The position numbers were made by a program, and so were the translations under genes. The notes under the pieces are model-generated. The model did not search any database. It had not been told where the DNA came from and worked only from the letters and a program-made list of their open reading frames with translations. From NCBI GenBank assembly GCA_015523565.1, contig WAKA01000008.1, positions 1 through 28,830 on the forward strand: a stretch of 28,830 nt of DNA. The letters run 5' to 3'. Numbering within the stretch: position 1 is the stretch's first letter; each line of letters opens with the position of its first letter. This stretch comes from Candidatus Heimdallarchaeota archaeon (GTDB taxonomy: Archaea > Asgardarchaeota > Heimdallarchaeia > Heimdallarchaeales > Kariarchaeaceae). This document shows, piece by piece, positions 5,892-28,717 of the stretch.

Positions 5892-6409
5892 TGGCGGCAG
5901 AAGACCTTTTGATATTTTTGAAACTTTTTTTCAATGCTGCTTGGCTATGGCTGGTTGTATTGTCTTTATTGACTCTACAACTTTTCAACTATTTCAAAGC
6001 AAGGATGAATAAGCCTTGGGAACCTTATGATCAGTTGTTAAGCTCAGGCAGACATCCACGGATGAAGGCATATGAGGAATTAAGGTTTTTAAAAGAAAAT
6101 TTGGACAGTTCCACTGATGAAGGAAAAGTCATGATCGTGAGAACTGAACTTTCAAAAATACTTGCAGAACGTATCGGTGTAAATGATAGGGAATTTTTGG
6201 CAATAAGAAATGATCCTGAAAAGTTAAAACAATATTTCCCTGACAAAAACATCAGGCTATTCTTGAACCAACCCAAACTATGGTACAATTCTCATATGCG
6301 AAAACAGGGATTCTTCTCCCGAATTAGTCATCAAAGTAACATTGATGGTGCTCTCATTGATATAATTAAAAAAGTGAGTTTGTTCTATCCAATGGAGGCA
6401 AAATCATGA
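5891..6409 (+). CDS. Hypothetical single-pass membrane protein of the MoxR operon
   Basis: N-terminal hydrophobic helix. Translationally coupled to both neighbours (TAATG and ATGA overlaps). Confidence 0.7.
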   Translation: MAAEDLLIFLKLFFNAAWLWLVVLSLLTLQLFNYFKARMNKPWEPYDQLLSSGRHPRMKAYEELRFLKENLDSSTDEGKVMIVRTELSKILAERIGVNDREFLAIRNDPEKLKQYFPDKNIRLFLNQPKLWYNSHMRKQGFFSRISHQSNIDGALIDIIKKVSLFYPMEAKS

Positions 6410-7356
6410 AATTTGAAACAGCAACAGAAAAAATCAATACAATAATAAATGAAGTGAAAAAAGCCATTGTTGGCAAAGATGAAGTCCTAAAATATGTCCT
6501 TTCAGGTATACTCGCAAATGGGCATATCTTGTTTGAAGACCTACCAGGGTTGGGAAAAACTCTGATGATACGGACTTTTTCGCAGGCGATGGGATTAAAC
6601 TTCTCACGAATTCAATTTACCCCTGATCTTCTTCCAGCAGATATCAGTGGAGTTTCCGTTTTCAATATGAGTTCCAATCAATTTGAATTTCGGGAAGGTC
6701 CTGTATTCACAAATTTATTGCTTGCCGATGAAATCAACCGTGCCACTCCAAAAACTCAATCCGCACTTCTTGAAGCTATGCAAGAACGCACTGTCACTGT
6801 TGATGGCAATTCTTACAAACTTGATTCTCCTTTTATTGTGTTGGCCACCCAAAACCCCATAGAATATGAAGGTACATTTACACTTCCAGAGGCACAGTTG
6901 GATCGTTTCCTGATGAAATTAAATGTTGGCTATCCATCTAAAAAAGATGAGATCCAAATTGTCAAAAACCGTGTTGAAAGGAAAAAAGAAGAATTTGATA
7001 TCGACACTGTTGTCTCAAAACAAGATATCCTTGATCTACAATTTCTTGTTGAAAATATTCATGTTAGTGATCCGATTGTTGAATATGTTGTCTCAATCGT
7101 GGAAAAAACAAGAAATCATAGTCAAATCGCAGTTGGTGCAAGTCCAAGAGGGAGTCTCGGTCTAATTCAAGCGGCAAAAGCTTGGGCACTAATTCAGGGA
7201 CGGGATTTCGTCAATCCCCAAGACATTCAGGATGTTTTAATTCCCGTTCTTGGACACCGTGTTATCCTAAGGTCTGGAGATATTATCAGTGGAGTCACTT
7301 CGGAGACAATCCTTACTGAAATATATCATCGTATTCCAGCGCCTAGAATTCAATGA
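6406..7356 (+). CDS. moxR: MoxR family AAA+ ATPase
   Basis: GHILFEDLPGLGKT (Walker A), RIQFTPDLLPAD, LLADEINRA (Walker B), ATQNPIEYEGT..LPEAQLDRF, and GASPR. Confidence 0.96.
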   Translation: MKFETATEKINTIINEVKKAIVGKDEVLKYVLSGILANGHILFEDLPGLGKTLMIRTFSQAMGLNFSRIQFTPDLLPADISGVSVFNMSSNQFEFREGPVFTNLLLADEINRATPKTQSALLEAMQERTVTVDGNSYKLDSPFIVLATQNPIEYEGTFTLPEAQLDRFLMKLNVGYPSKKDEIQIVKNRVERKKEEFDIDTVVSKQDILDLQFLVENIHVSDPIVEYVVSIVEKTRNHSQIAVGASPRGSLGLIQAAKAWALIQGRDFVNPQDIQDVLIPVLGHRVILRSGDIISGVTSETILTEIYHRIPAPRIQ

Positions 7357-7365
7357 GGGTTTTGA

Positions 7366-8649
7366 ATGAAATTTTCATATGCGCTTGTTCCCGTCAGCGG
7401 TCTCATAACCTTTTCGGTGGTCTTGACAATTTTGACTGCGCAACCGTTTTGGTTGTATGGTGCACTTCTCATTGGTGGAGTTGTCTTCTTCAAACTTTCA
7501 CATAACCAAACTTTGGCAGAATTGTATGTTGAACGGGATGTTCCTCGAAAATATTATCATAACGAGAACAAAATTTGGGTAACTTTACGGCTGACAAACA
7601 AGGGTCCTGGCAAGTTCAGAGGTAACATTTTCGATAAAATTCCAAAATCCGCTCAGATTATGGATGGAACAAATAATTTTCTTACTTTTCTTAATGAAGG
7701 GGAAACCCAAGTGGTCAAATACTCATTCAGTTTATCATCTCTAGGCTCATTCAAAATTGGTCCCACTCGTATTTATCAACACACATTTTCAGAATCAATA
7801 GACAGGGTGGAAGAGCTTGCCAATTACTCTGAAATAGTGATTCTTCCTGTACCTGCTAAAATAGGTAAATCACCTTTCATCGCCAAATATTTGAAGTCAT
7901 TTGGAGGTCCTTTTACAACCAAATTAGTTGGCGATGGCTGGGATTTCTCAGGAATTAGGGAATATGTCCCTACAGATACAATGAAACGAATCAATTGGAA
8001 AGCTACTTCAAAATTTCATAAGCTACATTCAAACGAATTCCAAATCGACCAGTCTGCAAAAATTATCATTGCCATTGATATCACGCAAGGAAATGAAACA
8101 TTATTGGAAGAGACAAGCAAAACCGTTATGGGTTTACTTGATTTTTTCATTAACAATCAGTGCAAGACTGGCTTGCTGGTAATTGGAAATATTTCTGCAT
8201 ATTTCCCGCCTACATCAAACCGTAAAAAACTGTTCCAAATCAGTCATTATCTTGCTCATTCAAGACCCTCAAAAATTAAGGATTTTCATCTTTTCAAATT
8301 ACGCCTTAATGCAGTCTTGGAAAAAGTCGGATCCATGAATGAGGTTCTCTTGTTTTCTCCCCTTTCGGACAAAACTCTGAATGAGCCAATCTTAAGCACT
8401 CTTTCATTAATGGGTCGCCTAACTGTCTTCACTCCCTCTTATGAAGAATTAAAGCCTAAAGAGGGAGAGAACATAAATTTGAAAATAGCAAAGCTTTTGG
8501 TCAATATGAAACGGGAATCCATTGAAAATCTAGTAAAGAAACAAGGAATCACAATCATTAAATGGAATCCCCTTATTGGACTTGAACGATCCTTATCATC
8601 AAGAGACCGTAACATTAGAATTATGGAGAGATTACCATGGGTGAAATAA
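7366..8649 (+). CDS. DUF58 family protein (MoxR partner with VWA-like domain)
   Basis: N-terminal TM pair and Ig-like region, then G.DF.GIREY.P.D..KRINWKAT, followed by IIIAIDIT. Confidence 0.88.
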   Translation: MKFSYALVPVSGLITFSVVLTILTAQPFWLYGALLIGGVVFFKLSHNQTLAELYVERDVPRKYYHNENKIWVTLRLTNKGPGKFRGNIFDKIPKSAQIMDGTNNFLTFLNEGETQVVKYSFSLSSLGSFKIGPTRIYQHTFSESIDRVEELANYSEIVILPVPAKIGKSPFIAKYLKSFGGPFTTKLVGDGWDFSGIREYVPTDTMKRINWKATSKFHKLHSNEFQIDQSAKIIIAIDITQGNETLLEETSKTVMGLLDFFINNQCKTGLLVIGNISAYFPPTSNRKKLFQISHYLAHSRPSKIKDFHLFKLRLNAVLEKVGSMNEVLLFSPLSDKTLNEPILSTLSLMGRLTVFTPSYEELKPKEGENINLKIAKLLVNMKRESIENLVKKQGITIIKWNPLIGLERSLSSRDRNIRIMERLPWVK

Positions 8650-16927: not shown

Positions 16928-18775
16928 CTATTTTTCACCTTTCTTTTTTAGAAGTATGATGGGAAGCAACATTGCCAAAAATGCCAATATTGATAGAGGG
17001 GTTGTATTGTTGGTCGCCCTGCTACTTGTCGGTACTGTAATTGAAACTGTTTGGGTAATTCTTATAATGTTTCCTGCTTTGTCCTTGATAATCAATCTAA
17101 TGTCGTAATCTCCTGATTTCCTATATTGATGTGACACTGAAGTTTTATTAGTTACGTCTTCCACTAGTCCGTCTCCCCATTCAATATATGCGGAAAGTAC
17201 TCCTGATCCGCTATCTGATGCTGAAAGACTGACTGAGGCAGTTCCATTATTCGCTATGATATCTAACGTTCCTGTTGGTGTTGTGTGATCAACAAGCAAA
17301 TAAACGGTATAAGCTCTTGTTTTATTCAATGTATTTGTTATGTTCAATATGATTGTATAATTTCCTTCAGTGGATAATGTCAATGTTGTATTGGCTTTTT
17401 TATCCAAATTTTCAGATCCCTTTATGTTAATGCTTGACAAGTTATCATCATTCAATCCATAAAAGATAAATGCGTCTTTAATTTTACCCTTTTCCGTTTT
17501 TGCACTGAAGAAGATTACTAACTCTGTCTTATTTGTAATGGAATTATTTGCCATGAACAATTTTCCAGATGGTCTTGAATCCACGATTTCAAATAATTTT
17601 TTATTTAAATATTCAGTATAGTTTCTGTTTTTCACGTATGGCTGGAATTCAACCTTTTGGTCGAATTTTAAGGTTTGATTCAACTCAAATCTATATTCGG
17701 TCACTAATGTAGTGGCAACTGTTACATTGTTGACTGTCTTGTTTACCTCATATGGTGTCGTAATGTTGAACAATCGGACGTCAGTCCAGTTTGTCGGTTC
17801 ATTGTCTGTTAAATTGTCGTAGAACCTATAACGGACATAGACCAAATCTTCGTTTGTTTGGTTATATGTTGTCACATTAAATCCTATTTTATCCAAATCT
17901 GTGAATTCTCTTTTATCAAAATCATACAAGGTGGAATTAAAGATGAAATAGCTGGATAATTTATGGACAATTCCTGCTGTGGAATCTTGTGCTTTTCTTT
18001 CCCACCCCTTGGAATTAAAGGCAGAGAAGAAAACCACCCGTGTTTTCAAGGTATAATTGAATGCAAATGTTGTATAATTTGTCTGTTTGTCAAATTTGAC
18101 AAACGTCATGTTGTATTGCACTGAGCTGGTTTTATTGTATATGTTTGTATTATTGTCACTAAATGCAATGACTGCATTTGTCTTATTGTTAGGATCATAT
18201 ACTCTGTAATTGATGGTGACTGTTTCACCAAGCTGTGTTACGTAATCCTTTATTGACCCTTCCTGAAAGGTTGCATTACGAATTGAATCAAACTCTGGAT
18301 AACGTTCTCCTTGTTTTACCCAAAGATATCTATATGCATTTCCATTTTCCCTGTCTTGATCAATTGTCGTGAATTCTTCCCTTGTCCCATTAGTTACACT
18401 TCCAGACCAAGCCCATGCATAATATTTTGTGAATTCTGTTACATTCAACTCTATTGAATAATAACTAAAAGCCTTAAACTTTCTATCAAGCGTGAAGGAG
18501 AAGTTCAATGTCTTGGCAAGCTGGACATCCTCTGTCAGATTACTTCCTTGCCCCAAGAGCAATATACCGTCCACTGCAAATCTATCTGCCTTATATGAAA
18601 TTTTGACAGTGGTATTGACATCAAATACGTATCTCTCAACTGGAACGTTGTCAACACTTACTCTTTCAAATATTGGGGCAGGCACTGTCCCGTCTGATTG
18701 TGCATAGGTATGGGCTGGAACAAGCCCACCAACCATTGATACCAAAATCATTAAAACGATAATCCTTCCTTTCAT
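16928..18775 (-). CDS. Secreted cell-surface glycoprotein with a C-terminal PKD domain and membrane anchor (start probably ATG 18775 or 18787, not TTG 18871)
   Basis: Signal peptide MKGRIIVLMILVSMVGGLVPAHTYA, about 33 N-x-S/T sequons, PKD motif IEWGDG...SHQY...GDY.IRL...D, and a C-terminal hydrophobic helix plus KKK. Confidence 0.8.
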   Translation of the reverse strand: MKGRIIVLMILVSMVGGLVPAHTYAQSDGTVPAPIFERVSVDNVPVERYVFDVNTTVKISYKADRFAVDGILLLGQGSNLTEDVQLAKTLNFSFTLDRKFKAFSYYSIELNVTEFTKYYAWAWSGSVTNGTREEFTTIDQDRENGNAYRYLWVKQGERYPEFDSIRNATFQEGSIKDYVTQLGETVTINYRVYDPNNKTNAVIAFSDNNTNIYNKTSSVQYNMTFVKFDKQTNYTTFAFNYTLKTRVVFFSAFNSKGWERKAQDSTAGIVHKLSSYFIFNSTLYDFDKREFTDLDKIGFNVTTYNQTNEDLVYVRYRFYDNLTDNEPTNWTDVRLFNITTPYEVNKTVNNVTVATTLVTEYRFELNQTLKFDQKVEFQPYVKNRNYTEYLNKKLFEIVDSRPSGKLFMANNSITNKTELVIFFSAKTEKGKIKDAFIFYGLNDDNLSSINIKGSENLDKKANTTLTLSTEGNYTIILNITNTLNKTRAYTVYLLVDHTTPTGTLDIIANNGTASVSLSASDSGSGVLSAYIEWGDGLVEDVTNKTSVSHQYRKSGDYDIRLIIKDKAGNIIRITQTVSITVPTSSRATNNTTPLSILAFLAMLLPIILLKKKGEK

Positions 18776-18940
18776 AAGAAACGCCATCTTTGAATTCTCA
18801 ATTCTTCCGCCTGAAAAATTATTAAAAAGTAATTCTATACGTTTACCTCTTGAAGCATGATTCTTTTTCAAGCTGATGACGCTTATCTGATAATGCTTGT
18901 CTTTTTTATTTCCATGCCCAATATCAAAGGTCTGATCTTC

Positions 18941-21028
18941 TTATAATTTAAGAGGCGCCTCAATGGAAATGAACTGGTTTAGCCTTAATCTCATCTTACA
19001 AATTGGGCATTCTCCCTTAAGATTCAACCATTCCTCCAAATGTTCTGGATGGGCAAGATTCTGGCAAGTCGGACATTTCAATACTGAATCAATTGCATTA
19101 ATGGCTCCCCTGCAGACTGTGCAATGTATTGGTAAATTCCCGCAATTTGGACATGGCTCATTGATATCCTCCAATTTTTGATTGCAGAAATAGCAGTATT
19201 GGTCAACAGTGAACTTGATGTAAGTACGGGTGACTTGAAAATTGTTTCCCTTTAGTTTTCCGATCAAAAATCCATTTGCAACAAGATAGAGAATGGTCTG
19301 AACGACAATTCTTGTATCTTCTTTCAATTCCTTGGCAAGCTTCTTTATTGAAACCTTTTTTCCGATCCCTTCATCCAACAAATGGGCTAATGATTGTACA
19401 AATGTTGATTTTTGTGAAATGGATGCATGTGGTTCCTCAATCCTGACTCTTTTTATTGTAAAACGTTGTTTGTGCTGTTGTGCAACCAAAAGACCAGATC
19501 CTATCAAAAAATACACTTTAGAAAGAATATTCACTCTTGGCTTTCTGAGAATTGTTTTTGCTTCCTTCAGATTTGGATTGGTTGCTGATGCCAAATATCC
19601 CAAAAGCACTTGATCCTCATAAGATAATTCATCAATTGTAATCAAAGGTGGGAGATTTGGTGTTTCAGTCATGACCAACCTTTTTTCATTAAAGATCTGG
19701 ATGTTCCCGATATTTTTTGCAACCATTGAATAGGCAATGGTTATTGCATTTTCTCTGTCAATTTTCAATAATGCTCCAATCTCTGGCCAAGTCAATGATT
19801 TTGTTGCTATCAATGCTCCTATTATTATCCGTTCTTCATCAGTAAGTGTCCCCGATTGCAAATCATCAGATTTACGTATAGTTTTAACCACAAACTCTTC
19901 TGTTGAAAGCAATCTTCCTTTTAGGTGACCCTCAAGATAAAGATCTACAATTCTTCGAAGCAATTCTTGCTTACTGATTCTCATTTTTTTTGCAAGTTGC
20001 TTAAGGCGAACCCTCTTTTGTGTTGAAATTCTTCCAAGTAATTCCTTGTAATTAAAGAAATACAAATGTTCCATATCTTGCAATGTTTTATTTGGGGAAA
20101 AATTAGGAAGGTCTTCTACAAATATGTCCTCATTAAAATTCATCAAGAATCGGTATTGGGTCATTGCTGTCATATTGCATAAAATTTCAATTATTCGTGG
20201 TCTTGGCAGTCCTGTCAGTGAAATCAATCTGTCAATTGCAATTTTTTCGCTTAAGGCTACAATTCCTAACACTAACCTTTGCTGTTCATTAAGTGCTTCA
20301 ATGGACTTTTGGGGAAAAGTCACATTTGCTTGCCTAATTTTTAATGAGAGAGTATTTTCTCTCAAAAAATTTTTCTGGTAATCAAAGTAACAAATGATGG
20401 TTTCTGAAAGCAAAAGGTCAACTAAGACAGAAAGTACTTTATGGTTTGGGATATCTAAGTCAAGAGAAATTTCTTCAATGGTTGTCACTCCCTTGAGCAA
20501 AAGGTATCCAATAAGTTGGATGTCCAGAAAACTTAATGTTTCTACCGTTTTTCGTTCTTTTCGATATTTGACAATGAAAAAGTAATAGTCTTCCTCCTGT
20601 TGAATAATCTCAATCATTCCTCTGCAAACAAATATGGCGACTTTCTTCATTGCTTCTGAACTTTTGATTTCAAAGACTTCTGCAATTTCCCTTAAACTAA
20701 GTTTATGTCTTGCCTTAATGTATGAGATGAAGAATTGATCTTGGACTGTTAATTGCTTAACTTCAAGTTTTGGTTTAAATGTGGTTCGTATAATTTTGTA
20801 TTCCAACCCCTTGAATTCAATAATGAACAACCCACTTTGGATCAATCTACCAAGCATTTCTTCAATTTCAATGTGTTTCAACCCTATTGTTCTGGCAAGT
20901 GTTTTAACATTTCCTTCTTTTAAGATGATCAATAATCCAATCAATGCCTCAATATCCTCTTCTGATGTTTCCTCATCAAAATATGGCTTGACGAACTTGA
21001 CTGGATCTATGATTCTTTCTGTAACCAT
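18941..21028 (-). CDS. Tandem winged-helix (PCI-like) repeat protein with a C-terminal Zn ribbon and RING-type finger
   Basis: About eight 75-80 aa repeats of the form L(S/T)xx(D/E)xxhhGxh...hxEhAxxh...hxxLhxxG. Then CxxC-x10-CxxC, followed by C-x2-C-x12-C-x2-C-x4-H-x2-H-x3-W-x6-CPIC. RBS-like GTGAGGT upstream. Confidence 0.75.
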   Translation of the reverse strand: MVTERIIDPVKFVKPYFDEETSEEDIEALIGLLIILKEGNVKTLARTIGLKHIEIEEMLGRLIQSGLFIIEFKGLEYKIIRTTFKPKLEVKQLTVQDQFFISYIKARHKLSLREIAEVFEIKSSEAMKKVAIFVCRGMIEIIQQEEDYYFFIVKYRKERKTVETLSFLDIQLIGYLLLKGVTTIEEISLDLDIPNHKVLSVLVDLLLSETIICYFDYQKNFLRENTLSLKIRQANVTFPQKSIEALNEQQRLVLGIVALSEKIAIDRLISLTGLPRPRIIEILCNMTAMTQYRFLMNFNEDIFVEDLPNFSPNKTLQDMEHLYFFNYKELLGRISTQKRVRLKQLAKKMRISKQELLRRIVDLYLEGHLKGRLLSTEEFVVKTIRKSDDLQSGTLTDEERIIIGALIATKSLTWPEIGALLKIDRENAITIAYSMVAKNIGNIQIFNEKRLVMTETPNLPPLITIDELSYEDQVLLGYLASATNPNLKEAKTILRKPRVNILSKVYFLIGSGLLVAQQHKQRFTIKRVRIEEPHASISQKSTFVQSLAHLLDEGIGKKVSIKKLAKELKEDTRIVVQTILYLVANGFLIGKLKGNNFQVTRTYIKFTVDQYCYFCNQKLEDINEPCPNCGNLPIHCTVCRGAINAIDSVLKCPTCQNLAHPEHLEEWLNLKGECPICKMRLRLNQFISIEAPLKL

Positions 21029-25578: not shown

Positions 25579-26859
25579 ATGCTAGATCCAAAACTGTTAA
25601 GAGAAAATCCTGATTTTGTCAAGGAAAACCTTGCAAAACGACAAAATGATGAATATCTGCAAATGGTGGATGAGTTTCTTGAAGTGGATGATCGTTGGCG
25701 AAAACTCATCAAACAGGTGGAAGAACTAAGAAAAAAACGAAATCAATATGCGAAACAAATTTCCAAATTGAAAGGGGACGAAAAAAAACAATCCGTGCAA
25801 AAGGTTCAAGAGATCAAGCAACAGTTGGAAAGGTTGGAAAAAGATTTGGTTGATGCAGAGACAAAAAGACAATGGCTTCTTGACCGTATTCCTAACCTTT
25901 TGCATGAGACTGTTCCTTTCGGGGAAAGTGATGAAGACAATGTGCCTATCCGCTTTTGGGGAGAGAAGCCTGAATTTTCTTTCGAACCAAAAGATCATCA
26001 TGAACTGCTTGAAATAAATGATCTTGCTGACATTGAAAGGGCCCGTAAAGTTTCTGGCGCTCGTTTTTATTACCTAAAAAATGAAGCTACTCTATTGGAA
26101 TTGGCGCTTGTTCAATATGCCCTCAATATCCTAAAAGAAGAAGGCTTTAATCTGTTTACTCCTCCAACTTTAGTAAGGGAACGCGCTCTTTATGGCACTG
26201 GTTTCCTGCCTACAGGAAAAGAAGACATTTACAAAATCGAAGGGGAAGACCTAAACCTAATTGGGACAAGTGAAGTGGCTCTTGGTGCCTTTCATATGGA
26301 TGAAACTCTTTTGGAGGAACAACTGCCCCTAAACTATTGTGGCATATCCAGTTGTTTTAGAACTGAAGCATCCGCAACAACAAAGGATGATAAAGGCATA
26401 TTTCGGGTACATGAGTTCAAGAAGGTTGAAATGTTCAAGTTCGTTCATCCTGAAAAGTCTTGGGATGAGCAGGAAGAAATGATCCGAATTGCAGAGAAGG
26501 TATTTCAAGGTCTAGGACTTCACTATAGGGTAGTCAATATTTGTACTGGTGATATTGGCGCAGTGGCTGCAAGAAAATATGATATTGAAGTATGGATGCC
26601 TGGACAGGGAAGATACAGGGAAGTCGTATCATGCTCCAATTGTACTGATTATCAAGCACGTCGTTTGAATGTAAAATATAGGGAAAAAGAAGGTATGCCA
26701 CCAAAAGGTTTTGTCCATACTCTAAATTCAACGGCAATTGCAACAACCCGTGCAATAGTTGCCATTCTTGAGAACTATCAACAGCCTGATGGGTCTATAC
26801 TTATTCCAGAAAAACTACAGAAATACACTGGATTTGACAAAATTAGTCCTAAACATTAA
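25579..26859 (+). CDS. serS: Serine--tRNA ligase (standard type)
   Basis: MLD...LR, N-terminal coiled coil, IPN, SGARFYYL, GTSE, CFRTEA, GIFRVHEF.KVE, KYDIE.W.P, EVVSCSNCTDYQARRL, HTLNST and ILEN.Q. Confidence 0.97.
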   Translation: MLDPKLLRENPDFVKENLAKRQNDEYLQMVDEFLEVDDRWRKLIKQVEELRKKRNQYAKQISKLKGDEKKQSVQKVQEIKQQLERLEKDLVDAETKRQWLLDRIPNLLHETVPFGESDEDNVPIRFWGEKPEFSFEPKDHHELLEINDLADIERARKVSGARFYYLKNEATLLELALVQYALNILKEEGFNLFTPPTLVRERALYGTGFLPTGKEDIYKIEGEDLNLIGTSEVALGAFHMDETLLEEQLPLNYCGISSCFRTEASATTKDDKGIFRVHEFKKVEMFKFVHPEKSWDEQEEMIRIAEKVFQGLGLHYRVVNICTGDIGAVAARKYDIEVWMPGQGRYREVVSCSNCTDYQARRLNVKYREKEGMPPKGFVHTLNSTAIATTRAIVAILENYQQPDGSILIPEKLQKYTGFDKISPKH

Positions 26860-28717
26860 ATTTCTTTTTCTTTTTCATTACTATTCCAAAAAGCAACATT
26901 GCAAAAACTGATATCGTTAGATTTACTGTTGCTTGACTTTCTTGTGTATCATTATTGACTACACTATTCACGGCTTCCCCATCCACTTTTGTCGCGGCTA
27001 TCTGTGATGCAACTTCTGTTACACCAGTATCTGTTTTTTCTTTGAGAATTTCAGATAAGATCATTGAAGTAAAGTTTGGAATCAATAGACCATATTTAAT
27101 GCCAATTTCAACAATCTCGCTTTTTATGCTTGGGTCTGGGTCTTCATTGTATATTTTCTGCAATTGGTTTACTTTTTGTAAAGCCCAAAGCAGTTCTGCA
27201 TGTTGATATCCTGTTTCATTCAAAAACGCAACTTCTTCCGAATGGTAGGTGGAATTTCCAATTAGGAAATCTGCAGTCAACCTAATTTTATTTGCCTTGA
27301 ACATTCCTGTAATAATGATTTCTGATCCATTCTGCAAGTCGGCAACTCCTTGTGTCAAATTAATGTTAAGGGTTGAAACGATAATGCCATCAGAAATTCC
27401 AATAACAATCTGCTTGATTTTAGGTATCGTTAACTGACCAAAAAGTCCTACAACAGCATCATTCATGTCTTCATCATTTTCAACAAAGACGTAGACCCCA
27501 CTATTGTCTGATGCGATATTTTCCAATAATTCTTGATCTGCTCCAGAACCGATTGCTATTGTAGATATCTGTACATTCAATGTATTTGTCTCTTTTACAT
27601 GTTCCCTGATAACACTTGAATTTGTTGACGTTCCTGCTGTTGCTTGTCCATCTGAAATGAAGATTAGAAGTTTCTCTCCTTGAGATGGGTAAAACAGGTT
27701 TAAAGATTCTGTAAATGCTCCATAAATATTTGTGGAACCACCAGCACTCAATGAAGTAATGAACTCACTTGCGCTTTGCTTGTTATCTTCAGTTGCTGGA
27801 CGAACCTCATCCCACATGGTATCGACATTTGAATTAAAGATGACTATGTTGAACTCATCATTTGGAGATAAGACTTCAATAATGTTCAACAAGGCATTTT
27901 TCGCTTGGCTTATTCTGGTACCTGCCATAGATCCAGAAACGTCGAGTGTAAAGATTATTTGGCGTGACATGTTTGCTGACTGTACCTCGACCTTTGGAGC
28001 CAAAAAGAAGGCAAAATAACCAACTGATCCATTTGAATAGGAAATTAAGGATGTTCCAACGTCATAATCATTTGTGACATAGATAAGTTTTGCATATGAA
28101 TCTAAGCCCATTATGAATTTATTCACTTTTATGTGATAACCACCATCAATTATGTCAAAAATGCCGCCTTGAATTCCGTCCATCTTTACTGCAATAATTT
28201 CTGAAAGGTGGGAAATCACCTTCAAGTCAACAGATAATTCTATTCCTGAAACGTACTCTGGTGCACTTGGTGTAAACTTAAAAGAATACTGTCCAAATGA
28301 TCGTTGCAATGACCCTTCCATAAATAATTTCACATTCAGTTTCTCATTTACGGGATTATTTATTTTCAACAGGATTGCTGATTGCTGAAATTCAATAAGC
28401 ATTCCTATTCTTTTTTGGGTAACTGTTTCATTGTAAATTTCCTGTGCTTCCTTTGCCTCAACTACTTTGCCCCATAATGTCACGTTTGAATTGTAAAGTG
28501 TTGCATTGCTCAAAAACAATCCTTTCTGTCTTGGGAGGTAAAAATCAAAATCTTCAGTATTAGGGTCTATTGCAAGAGAATAGGTAATATTTACATAATT
28601 GTCAACTATTGACCCTTCTACACTGACAGAAAGTAATGGTGCCGCATTTGGCATGTTCGGGAAATATCCTGATAATAACAAAATTATCCATAATATGGTT
28701 AACTTTTCCTTTTTCAT
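26849..28717 (-). CDS. Secreted VIT + VWA domain protein (inter-alpha-trypsin inhibitor heavy-chain-like architecture) with C-terminal anchor
   Basis: Signal peptide, VIT-like F.LP...F.S...GKV.E..EA..IY, GYFAFFLAP, an intact MIDAS (DVSGSM, GGSTN, SDG), LWA...FTSMIL, and a C-terminal hydrophobic helix plus KKKKK. Confidence 0.87.
   Translation of the reverse strand: MKKEKLTILWIILLLSGYFPNMPNAAPLLSVSVEGSIVDNYVNITYSLAIDPNTEDFDFYLPRQKGLFLSNATLYNSNVTLWGKVVEAKEAQEIYNETVTQKRIGMLIEFQQSAILLKINNPVNEKLNVKLFMEGSLQRSFGQYSFKFTPSAPEYVSGIELSVDLKVISHLSEIIAVKMDGIQGGIFDIIDGGYHIKVNKFIMGLDSYAKLIYVTNDYDVGTSLISYSNGSVGYFAFFLAPKVEVQSANMSRQIIFTLDVSGSMAGTRISQAKNALLNIIEVLSPNDEFNIVIFNSNVDTMWDEVRPATEDNKQSASEFITSLSAGGSTNIYGAFTESLNLFYPSQGEKLLIFISDGQATAGTSTNSSVIREHVKETNTLNVQISTIAIGSGADQELLENIASDNSGVYVFVENDEDMNDAVVGLFGQLTIPKIKQIVIGISDGIIVSTLNINLTQGVADLQNGSEIIITGMFKANKIRLTADFLIGNSTYHSEEVAFLNETGYQHAELLWALQKVNQLQKIYNEDPDPSIKSEIVEIGIKYGLLIPNFTSMILSEILKEKTDTGVTEVASQIAATKVDGEAVNSVVNNDTQESQATVNLTISVFAMLLFGIVMKKKKKFNV

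Follow-up and report, generated by a model that had tools for sequence, protein, structure and literature searches.

Ubiquitylation cascades made up of E1, E2, and RING proteins are established in archaea (Hennell James et al. 2017, PMC5654768), and in Caldiarchaeum subterraneum a single operon encodes ubiquitin, eukaryote-like E1 and E2 enzymes, and a small, stand-alone RING protein (PMC5654768). In eukaryotes, RING-H2 ubiquitin ligases (E3s) such as Arkadia/RNF111, RNF165/ARK2C, RNF24, RNF38, and EL5 have a treble clef with the ligand spacing C-x2-C ... H-x2-[H/C] ... C-P-x-C. UFL1 and DDRGK1 (UFBP1) provide an E3 platform built as a tandem array of winged-helix (WH) domains, either single-chain or composite; UFL1 has no RING and works with UFC1 and UFM1. 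The PCI subunits of the proteasome lid, the COP9 signalosome (CSN), and eIF3 carry one WH domain per chain behind N-terminal helical repeats, and Nse1 of the Smc5/6 complex joins two tandem WH domains to a variant RING. The C-termini of WDR19/IFT144 in IFT-A and of WDR24, WDR59, and MIOS in GATOR2 consist of a tandem Zn ribbon and RING, with a beta-propeller and an alpha-solenoid upstream. RING proteins are numerous in Asgard archaea. Here we describe P0001, a 695-residue protein with eight WH domains, a Zn ribbon, and a RING finger. It is encoded in a 28,830-nucleotide stretch of DNA from a Candidatus Heimdallarchaeota archaeon (GenBank assembly GCA_015523565.1, contig WAKA01000008.1, positions 1 to 28,830), which was analyzed as a whole and is referred to as the window. 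We estimate a probability of roughly 60% that P0001 is a RING-type ubiquitin E3 ligase with the WH array as its target-binding scaffold, a reading in which activity, choice of E2, and target are all predicted. Literature searches found no description of this protein family or of an architecture combining eight WH domains with a Zn ribbon-RING (ZnR-RING) cassette.

The P0001 gene lies on the minus strand at positions 18941..21028, stop codon included. At these positions, the first-pass annotation had proposed a single open reading frame (ORF) with eight tandem WH repeats followed by a Zn ribbon and a RING, and our analysis confirmed this ORF. All eight repeat starts that it had quoted were located in the protein, at residues 26, 93, 165, 246, 325, 395, 468, and 540, with a spacing of 67-81 residues. 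When sub-alignments of the eight units were compared by hhalign, all 28 repeat pairs proved homologous, with probabilities of 89-98.6% and E-values from 2e-6 to 1e-15 (E 1.2e-15 for WH7 against WH2). By these profile comparisons, the match among the eight units is far beyond chance, and the homology of all pairs indicates that the array arose by internal duplication.

An AlphaFold2 model of P0001 was built on an alignment of 52 relatives; a single-sequence model reached a predicted local distance difference test (pLDDT) score of only 35.8 and was not used. The alignment-based model had a pLDDT of 91.7 and a predicted template modeling (pTM) score of 0.75, and it contained eight units with the order H-(b)-H-H-b-b, followed by two Zn modules. 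Each unit superposed on canonical WH domains by VIA (Z 8-9.8, root-mean-square deviation [rmsd] 1.5-3 Å), so the repeats fold as WH domains in the model, as had been predicted, and the contrary outcome did not occur. Only WH units and short linkers were present, with no helical-repeat (TPR-like) region N-terminal to the WH domains in the model.

The eight domains, all encoded on the minus strand, differ in their closest matches. WH1 (20777..20971, aa 20-84) is acidic, with a net charge of -3, and TrmB-like; it passed the Pfam TrmB model (E 4.6e-8, 33.3 bits against a cut-off of 25.6), was modeled with helices at 23-36, 41-48, and 52-65 and strands at 68-73 and 76-82, and superposed on proteasome-lid and CSN2 WH domains with Z 8.5-8.6. 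WH2 (20564..20755, aa 92-155), delimited in the AlphaFold2 model, resembles DDRGK1, FeoC, and PafC, with a Pfam DDRGK score of 25.0 bits (E 1.6e-5) that falls below the cut-off of 27.8 and a profile match to DDRGK1 chains at E 4e-4. WH3 (20321..20539, aa 164-236) is MarR-like with a long wing, and 72-75 of its residues aligned to MarR-family chains at Z 9.1-9.3. WH4 (20111..20296, aa 245-306) gave Z 9.0-9.3 to the Csa3 WH, Z-alpha, MarR, and DDRGK1 (8oj0_C). WH5 (19871..20059, aa 324-386) is PCI-like and basic (net charge +11); it passed the Pfam PCI model (E 1.2e-7, 32.2 bits against a cut-off of 22) and matched CSN2 at E 2e-3. WH6 (19658..19849, aa 394-457) is followed by a conserved PxxPPL linker (aa 458-466) and gave Z 8.4-8.8 to CadC, Csa3, and the UFL1/DDRGK1 chain 8c0d_E; by VIA, WH5 and WH6 matched DDRGK1/UFL1, CadC, and eIF3 folds. 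WH7 (19439..19630, aa 467-530), also delimited in the model, is basic with a net charge of +7. WH8 (19217..19414, aa 539-604), which directly precedes the Zn modules, is PCI-like, with Z 9.4 (rmsd 2.0 Å, 61 residues) to the CSN chain 9efq_B, Z 9.1 to the proteasome-lid chain 8usc_X, and Z 9.8 to the N-terminal WH of BirA. The PCI likeness that had been noted for repeats 5 and 8 is thus borne out: the quoted strings are present, WH5 passes the Pfam model, and WH8 superposes on CSN and lid domains.

Compared with PCI subunits, P0001 has eight WH domains per chain rather than one, lacks the N-terminal helical repeats, and has a RING attached, although WH8 and WH1 superposed closely on the PCI WH domains of CSN and the proteasome lid (Z 8.5-9.4, rmsd 1.5-2.0 Å). 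Single WH domains of P0001 matched DDRGK1 and UFL1 chains at Z 7.8-9.0. Among the 52 relatives, Pfam matches were obtained to PCI in 32, TrmB in 10, and DDRGK in 8. In control genomes, the DDRGK model also matched in 5 of 14 prokaryotes and the PCI model in 4 of 14. Because these models also match ordinary prokaryotic genomes, the eukaryote-like flavor of the WH domains is suggestive but not proven.

A Foldseek search with the whole model ranked highest a UFL1-DDRGK1 chimera (E 5e-6), 60S-bound UFL1, TFIIIC tauB, the SelB tail with its four WH domains, Nse1, and RPC82. The best match was to UFL1/DDRGK1, with E 5e-6 for 8b9x_A and 2e-5 for 8qfc_B and template modeling (TM) scores of 0.09-0.22 on superposition. 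TM-scores were low throughout the search, and VIA of the whole 695-residue model returned single-WH matches only, with no solved chain matching the array globally. In the model, therefore, the likeness to these proteins is that of a run of WH domains and not of a common rigid shape. At the level of sequence families, P0001 stayed below the DDRGK cut-off (PF09756; 25.0 bits against 27.8) and gave no match to E3_UFM1_ligase (PF09743). Among its relatives, P0033 passed the DDRGK model at 40.1 bits, and P0031 scored 19.4 bits on PF09743, below the cut-off of 23.2.

The ZnR-RING cassette comprises aa 604-695 (window positions 18944-19219). The two Zn modules predicted at 18998-19195 match exactly a C4 group, C612/C615/C626/C629, and an eight-ligand finger, C636-C677. 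The C4 zinc ribbon (19133..19207, minus strand, aa 608-632) gave weak Pfam Zn_ribbon and DZR matches, and its ligands were invariant in alignments A1 and A4. The RING finger (18983..19132, minus strand, aa 633-682) has the pattern C636-x2-C639-x12-C652-x2-C655-x4-H660-x2-H663-x10-C674-x2-C677, which was invariant in 19 of 19 and 40 of 40 sequences; all 12 metal ligands of ribbon and RING were invariant in the 19 full-length relatives, which share 20-65% identity. The spacing of the eight RING ligands allows a cross-brace (sites 1, 2, 5, and 6 and sites 3, 4, 7, and 8). On alignment to Arkadia and RNF24, C636 and C639 correspond to ligands 1 and 2, C655 to ligand 3, H660 to ligand 5, H663 to ligand 6, and C674 and C677 to ligands 7 and 8. 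Where a canonical RING-H2 has His-4, the residue is N, S, H, Y, or Q, and the upstream Cys652 supplies the ligand, resulting in a C4H2C2 finger.

This set differs from that of the RING-H2 ligases in that there is no His at ligand 4, a Cys three residues upstream of C3 is present instead, and ligand 6 is His; the C4 ribbon fused directly ahead of the RING and the eight WH domains upstream are further differences. In common with these ligases, P0001 has the treble clef and the ligand spacing; a hydrophobic residue follows C1, a basic one follows C8, and both the Trp and the Pro are present. The cassette family profile matched RNF24, Arkadia/RNF165, RNF126, EL5, RNF38, Hrd1, RLIM, and RNF4 with E-values from 3e-8 to 1e-5, the best being RNF24, Arkadia, and RNF165. 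The identities of a canonical RING-H2 (C3H2C3) were not found, and the Pfam zf-RING_2 model scored 19.4 bits against a cut-off of 27.3. In the AlphaFold2 model, the treble clef (beta-beta-alpha) was formed with a strand at 649-651 and a helix at 661-671 (pLDDT 84-94 over aa 611-690), and VIA gave Z 8.3 (rmsd 2.7 Å, 66 residues) to the RING/U-box chain 3lrq_D. The prediction of a C-terminal RING was therefore upheld as to type, both by sequence (E 3e-8) and by fold, and the ligand order fits a cross-brace; the finger does not belong to the canonical RING-H2 class.

We then compared the residues expected to contact an E2. In P0001 these are V638, W667, and P675, with K678 after the last Cys. Among the relatives that carry the array, V or I was found two residues after C1 in 49 of 49 sequences, the Trp in 47 of 49, and the Pro in 48 of 49; the residue after the last RING Cys was K or R in 46 of 49. 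A co-fold of the cassette (40-row alignment, three Zn ions) with the operon E2 P0154 (15 rows), described below, gave a score of 0.00, which speaks neither for nor against binding. RING and E2 are a textbook pair, and even a passing co-fold would have leaned on solved structures.

Conservation is uneven along the protein. Mean pairwise identity was highest in the RING and in the linker between WH6 and WH7 (both 0.43), followed by WH5 and WH6 (0.32), and lowest in WH1 and WH8 (0.22). WH5, WH7, and WH8 are net basic (family means of +2.8 to +4.6), WH1-WH3 are acidic to neutral, and the pI of full-length members is mostly 7.5-9.4. Net charge per repeat ranged from -4 to +11 among orthologues, and only 0-3 positions per WH had K or R in at least 60% of sequences. 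The small number of conserved basic positions tends to argue against a fixed DNA-reading surface in this family and would make a protein or a large nucleoprotein particle a more likely target than a specific DNA site.

We next surveyed the distribution of P0001 by profile search in 400 genomes of the phylum, 47 of them in the order to which the organism belongs. A full or near-full orthologue was detected in 44 of these 47 genomes (E 1e-135 to 1e-264), mostly at ~690 residues, and the assemblies of the three genomes without one are fragmentary. An orthologue is likewise present in three genomes from two other families (E ~1e-90), and in all remaining lineages the match was restricted to the last ~85 residues. 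The near-universal occurrence at a nearly constant length throughout the order indicates, from sequence comparison, that purifying selection acts on the whole array. A word-indexed homologue search with P0001 or alignment A1 gave three close relatives, and exhaustive HMMER searching was used instead. In representatives, the latter returned 701 matches, of which ~18 were full-length at 22-36% identity; a further tier had WH5-WH8 plus the cassette in proteins of 586-892 residues, and hundreds had the cassette alone. Carriers of the orthologue include Candidatus Heimdallarchaeota metagenome-assembled genomes such as AB_125 and the complete genomes of Ca. Heimdallarchaeum aukensis and endolithica, and members of the family are annotated in public records either as a "hypothetical protein" or as a "RING-H2 finger protein."

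The cassette was also found on 11 other ORFs of the same genome, including C6:10474-11403, C203:28993-30270, C44:14533-17535, and C104:4410-5573 (contig:positions). Elsewhere in Asgard archaea, its carriers are type I membrane receptor-like, FG-GAP/TSP3, beta-helix/NosD, solute-binding, and DUF2341 proteins. These sequence matches identify the Zn ribbon plus C4H2C2 RING cassette as a mobile C-terminal module in Asgard archaea. Its reuse on many N-terminal architectures fits a catalytic module that is combined with different recognition parts. Other cassette-bearing relatives are P0056, P0054, P0131, P0100, and P0105. A protocoatomer-like reading of the ~1000-residue carriers was considered and rejected for P0056, a type I membrane protein with a signal peptide, a ~680-residue ectodomain, one transmembrane helix, and a cytoplasmic ZnR-RING.

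The genome (3.57 Mb in 233 contigs, ~90% complete, ~35% GC) was then searched for the remaining components of a ubiquitin system. The first-pass annotation had suggested looking for ubiquitin, E1, and E2 genes. The search found ubiquitin-like genes, an E1, and two E2s of the catalytic type, together with a JAB protease. Contig C104 (L079:1125-7680) carries an operon for two ubiquitin-like proteins of 141 and 106 residues, a ThiF E1, a UQ_con E2 (P0154), a JAB/MPN protein, a 388-residue RING protein, and a 679-residue TPR and winged-helix protein with an RPN7-like match. The end of this operon thus pairs a PCI-like protein with an MPN protease. The genome has an operon like that of Caldiarchaeum, where the RING is small, stand-alone, and inside the operon, whereas the RING of P0001 is the tail of a 695-residue WH array encoded away from it. 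A second E2, with the HPN motif and the catalytic Cys, is encoded on contig C204 (L080:5283-5750). No ATG, GTG, or TTG codon lies upstream of its helix 1, and the in-frame peptide IQILPEDDYWARLAIEANE precedes the first Met; because of this missing start, either translation probably begins at a codon outside the canonical set or the ORF as called is truncated. This E2 is followed by ORFs of 118 and 1036 residues. The third UQ_con match, on contig C32 (L081:4446-7775), is a 266-residue UEV-like protein with the HPN motif but without the catalytic Cys; downstream of it is an ESCRT operon, judging by genes that resemble ESCRT-I/II components and a Vps4-type AAA ATPase. A UQ_con E2 above the cut-off was present in 47 of 47 genomes of the order.

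By contrast with UFL1, which has no RING and acts with UFC1 and UFM1, P0001 has a RING, and neither partner was found in its genome. In the ~90% complete genome, UFM1 and the UFL1/E3_UFM1_ligase family gave no match, and the sole UFC1 match (E 0.038) lay in a frame with stops. Membership of P0001 in a UFMylation pathway was set aside, as the genome lacks a match to Ufm1, UFC1, or E3_UFM1_ligase. The label "scaffold-type" E3, which had been attached to P0001, needs qualification: the term belongs to the RING-less UFL1, and P0001 possesses a RING.

Taken as a ubiquitin ligase, P0001 would work as follows. The ZnR-RING cassette is expected to bind three Zn ions and to recruit a ubiquitin-charged E2 by the usual RING surface, namely the V/I after the first Cys, the Trp on the central helix, and the Pro of the final CPxC; activation of the E2 would fall to the K/R just past the last Cys, as its conservation suggests. 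The eight WH domains would form a long single-chain platform that keeps either a substrate or a partner assembly close to the RING. The functional core would consist of WH5-WH6, the PxxPPL linker, and the RING, because these are the most conserved parts. Several observations weigh against this reading. C4H2C2 is not a canonical RING class, lacking His at ligand 4 and having His at ligand 6, and the cassette resembles the C-terminal Zn domains of WDR19 (IFT-A) and of WDR24, WDR59, and MIOS (GATOR2) with E-values from 1.5e-7 to 5e-5. Such domains in IFT-A and GATOR2 serve mainly as structural junctions. Every WH domain matches DNA-binding winged helix-turn-helix (wHTH) regulators at Z 8-9, equal to its matches with PCI or DDRGK1, so the fold does not decide between binding of protein and binding of nucleic acid; WH1 passes the TrmB model, and WH5, WH7, and WH8 are net positive, though variably so among relatives. 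Finally, no ubiquitin-system gene was found beside the WH-RING gene in ~38 loci examined.

The resemblance to IFT-A and GATOR2 would be explained if P0001 were a non-catalytic scaffold, in which the ZnR-RING is a structural or oligomerization module and the only task of the protein is to organize a complex by means of the WH array, to which PCI-type WH proteins, for instance, could dock. The ribbon and RING matched the WDR19/IFT144 C-terminus as a unit (profile E 1.5e-7 over positions 5-86 of 89; VIA Z 8.6 with 27% identity over 85 residues), the pTM of 0.75 suggests a fixed multi-domain body, and the operon on C104, which ends in the TPR and WH protein beside JAB, indicates that PCI/MPN-like partners exist. 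However, conservation is 94-100% at the K/R that follows the last Cys and at all three positions of E2 contact, which is unexpected for a purely structural finger, and the best sequence matches of the cassette are active RING-H2 ligases; P0001 also differs from WDR19 and the GATOR2 subunits in having eight WH domains upstream and in keeping the E2-contact residues. We therefore regard a purely structural role as unlikely. It also seems improbable to us that P0001 is chiefly a nucleic-acid-binding factor in chromatin, transcription, or RNA metabolism, with a multi-wHTH array that binds DNA or RNA as in TFIIIC tau138, RPC82, ORC, or SelB and a RING that adds local ubiquitylation or only stability. 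Foldseek matches to TFIIIC tauB (E 1e-4), SelB WH1-4 (E 1.8e-4), and RPC82/RPC62, the TrmB match of WH1, the Z ~9 matches of WH3 and WH4 to MarR, Z-alpha, and Csa3, and the basic character of WH5, WH7, and WH8 with the mostly alkaline pI are all consistent with such a factor. On the other hand, conserved basic residues do not cluster on recognition helices or wings in any of the eight domains, the charge of each repeat varies widely among orthologues with WH1-WH3 acidic to neutral, and the global superpositions were poor (TM 0.1-0.25, rmsd 15-30 Å).

The order of WH7, WH8, the Zn ribbon, and the RING at the C-terminus recalls Nse1, and Foldseek matched the Nse1 chains 5hvq_C (E 3e-3) and 7dg2_A (E 1e-2) over ~250 columns, as well as ScpB chains (3w6j_E). 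If P0001 were a "kite" subunit of this kind, tandem WH domains would clamp the kleisin of an SMC complex and the RING would act on chromosome-bound targets. We consider this very improbable: a Pfam scan at E-values up to 10 returned no SMC_Nse1 or Nse1-type RING match and no other Nse1 family for P0001, the chain has eight WH domains against two with a Zn ribbon inserted before the RING that Nse1 lacks, no SMC or kleisin gene was found near P0001, and the Nse1 matches are weaker than those to UFL1/DDRGK1. A defense-system role was set aside, with PADLOC giving no match for P0001 or three neighbors.

The surroundings of the gene were compared among lineages. In the 84-bp spacer upstream of the P0001 ATG, a TATA-like box and a GTGAGGT Shine-Dalgarno motif were found, and on account of these the gene may have its own promoter. 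The gene order is PdxS-PdxT-gene-PKD-subtilase in the family of the window and PKD <-> GlnA -> gene -> 107-aa ORF -> ABC ATPase in the AB_125/Heimdallarchaeum family; in other lineages the neighbors of the WH-RING gene differ. Neighbors in the examined loci include PdxS/PdxT, GlnA, an ABC ATPase, and the PKD surface protein. In the window, the last of these (16928-18871, minus strand) has 647 residues, a PKD domain, many N-x-S/T sites, a C-terminal transmembrane helix, and a Lys-rich tail (KKKGEK). In two families, it lies within 0-4 kb of the WH-RING gene despite rearrangement (L039-L064, L065-L069, and L076). The PKD protein was rejected as an operon partner, given that the ABC ATPase, the 107-aa ORF, SerRS, and the PdxS/PdxT region are also syntenic. 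Since the wider region also stays nearby, its proximity is probably residual synteny and not a functional pairing. The rest of the window encodes TiaS, a geranylgeranyl reductase, MoxR/DUF58, an Alg9-like GT22 protein, a subtilase, PdxS/PdxT, Ham1, SerRS, and a VWA protein, all ordinary archaeal housekeeping or surface genes. The MoxR AAA+ ATPase and DUF58 protein (6406-8649, plus strand) and the VIT-VWA protein (26849-28717, minus strand) are common chaperone-like partners and have no link to P0001.

The Asgard combination of DDRGK- and PCI-like WH arrays with a RING suggests, without proving it, that scaffolds of this kind were originally conventional RING ligases. On a bolder view, P0001 and its relatives with four to eight WH domains would be survivors of the stock behind eukaryotic WH-array ligase scaffolds. 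The UFL1/DDRGK1 E3s would have begun as RING ligases with a large particle (the ribosome, for example) bound to the WH array and would have lost the RING once UFC1 and UFM1 took over, and the single-chain PCI-like array would be the prokaryotic forerunner of the PCI horseshoe with its several subunits. This scenario is speculative, and we think it quite improbable as a whole. It has been suggested in the literature that UFL1/DDRGK1 predate UFM1, and the P0001 family allows this suggestion to be tested.

We are aware of almost no information on the targets of archaeal RING ligases. The P0001 family is a conserved candidate ligase, near-universal in its order, in which an eight-WH array would be the recognition part, and the nearest structural analogues of that array are eukaryotic ligase or regulator scaffolds, namely UFL1/DDRGK1, PCI proteins, and Nse1. 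Through the fused Zn ribbon-RING cassette, archaeal ligases are linked at the sequence level to subunits of IFT-A and GATOR2, in their C-terminal Zn domains. P0001 thus offers a concrete, expressible protein with which to ask how substrate selection worked in pre-eukaryotic ubiquitylation.

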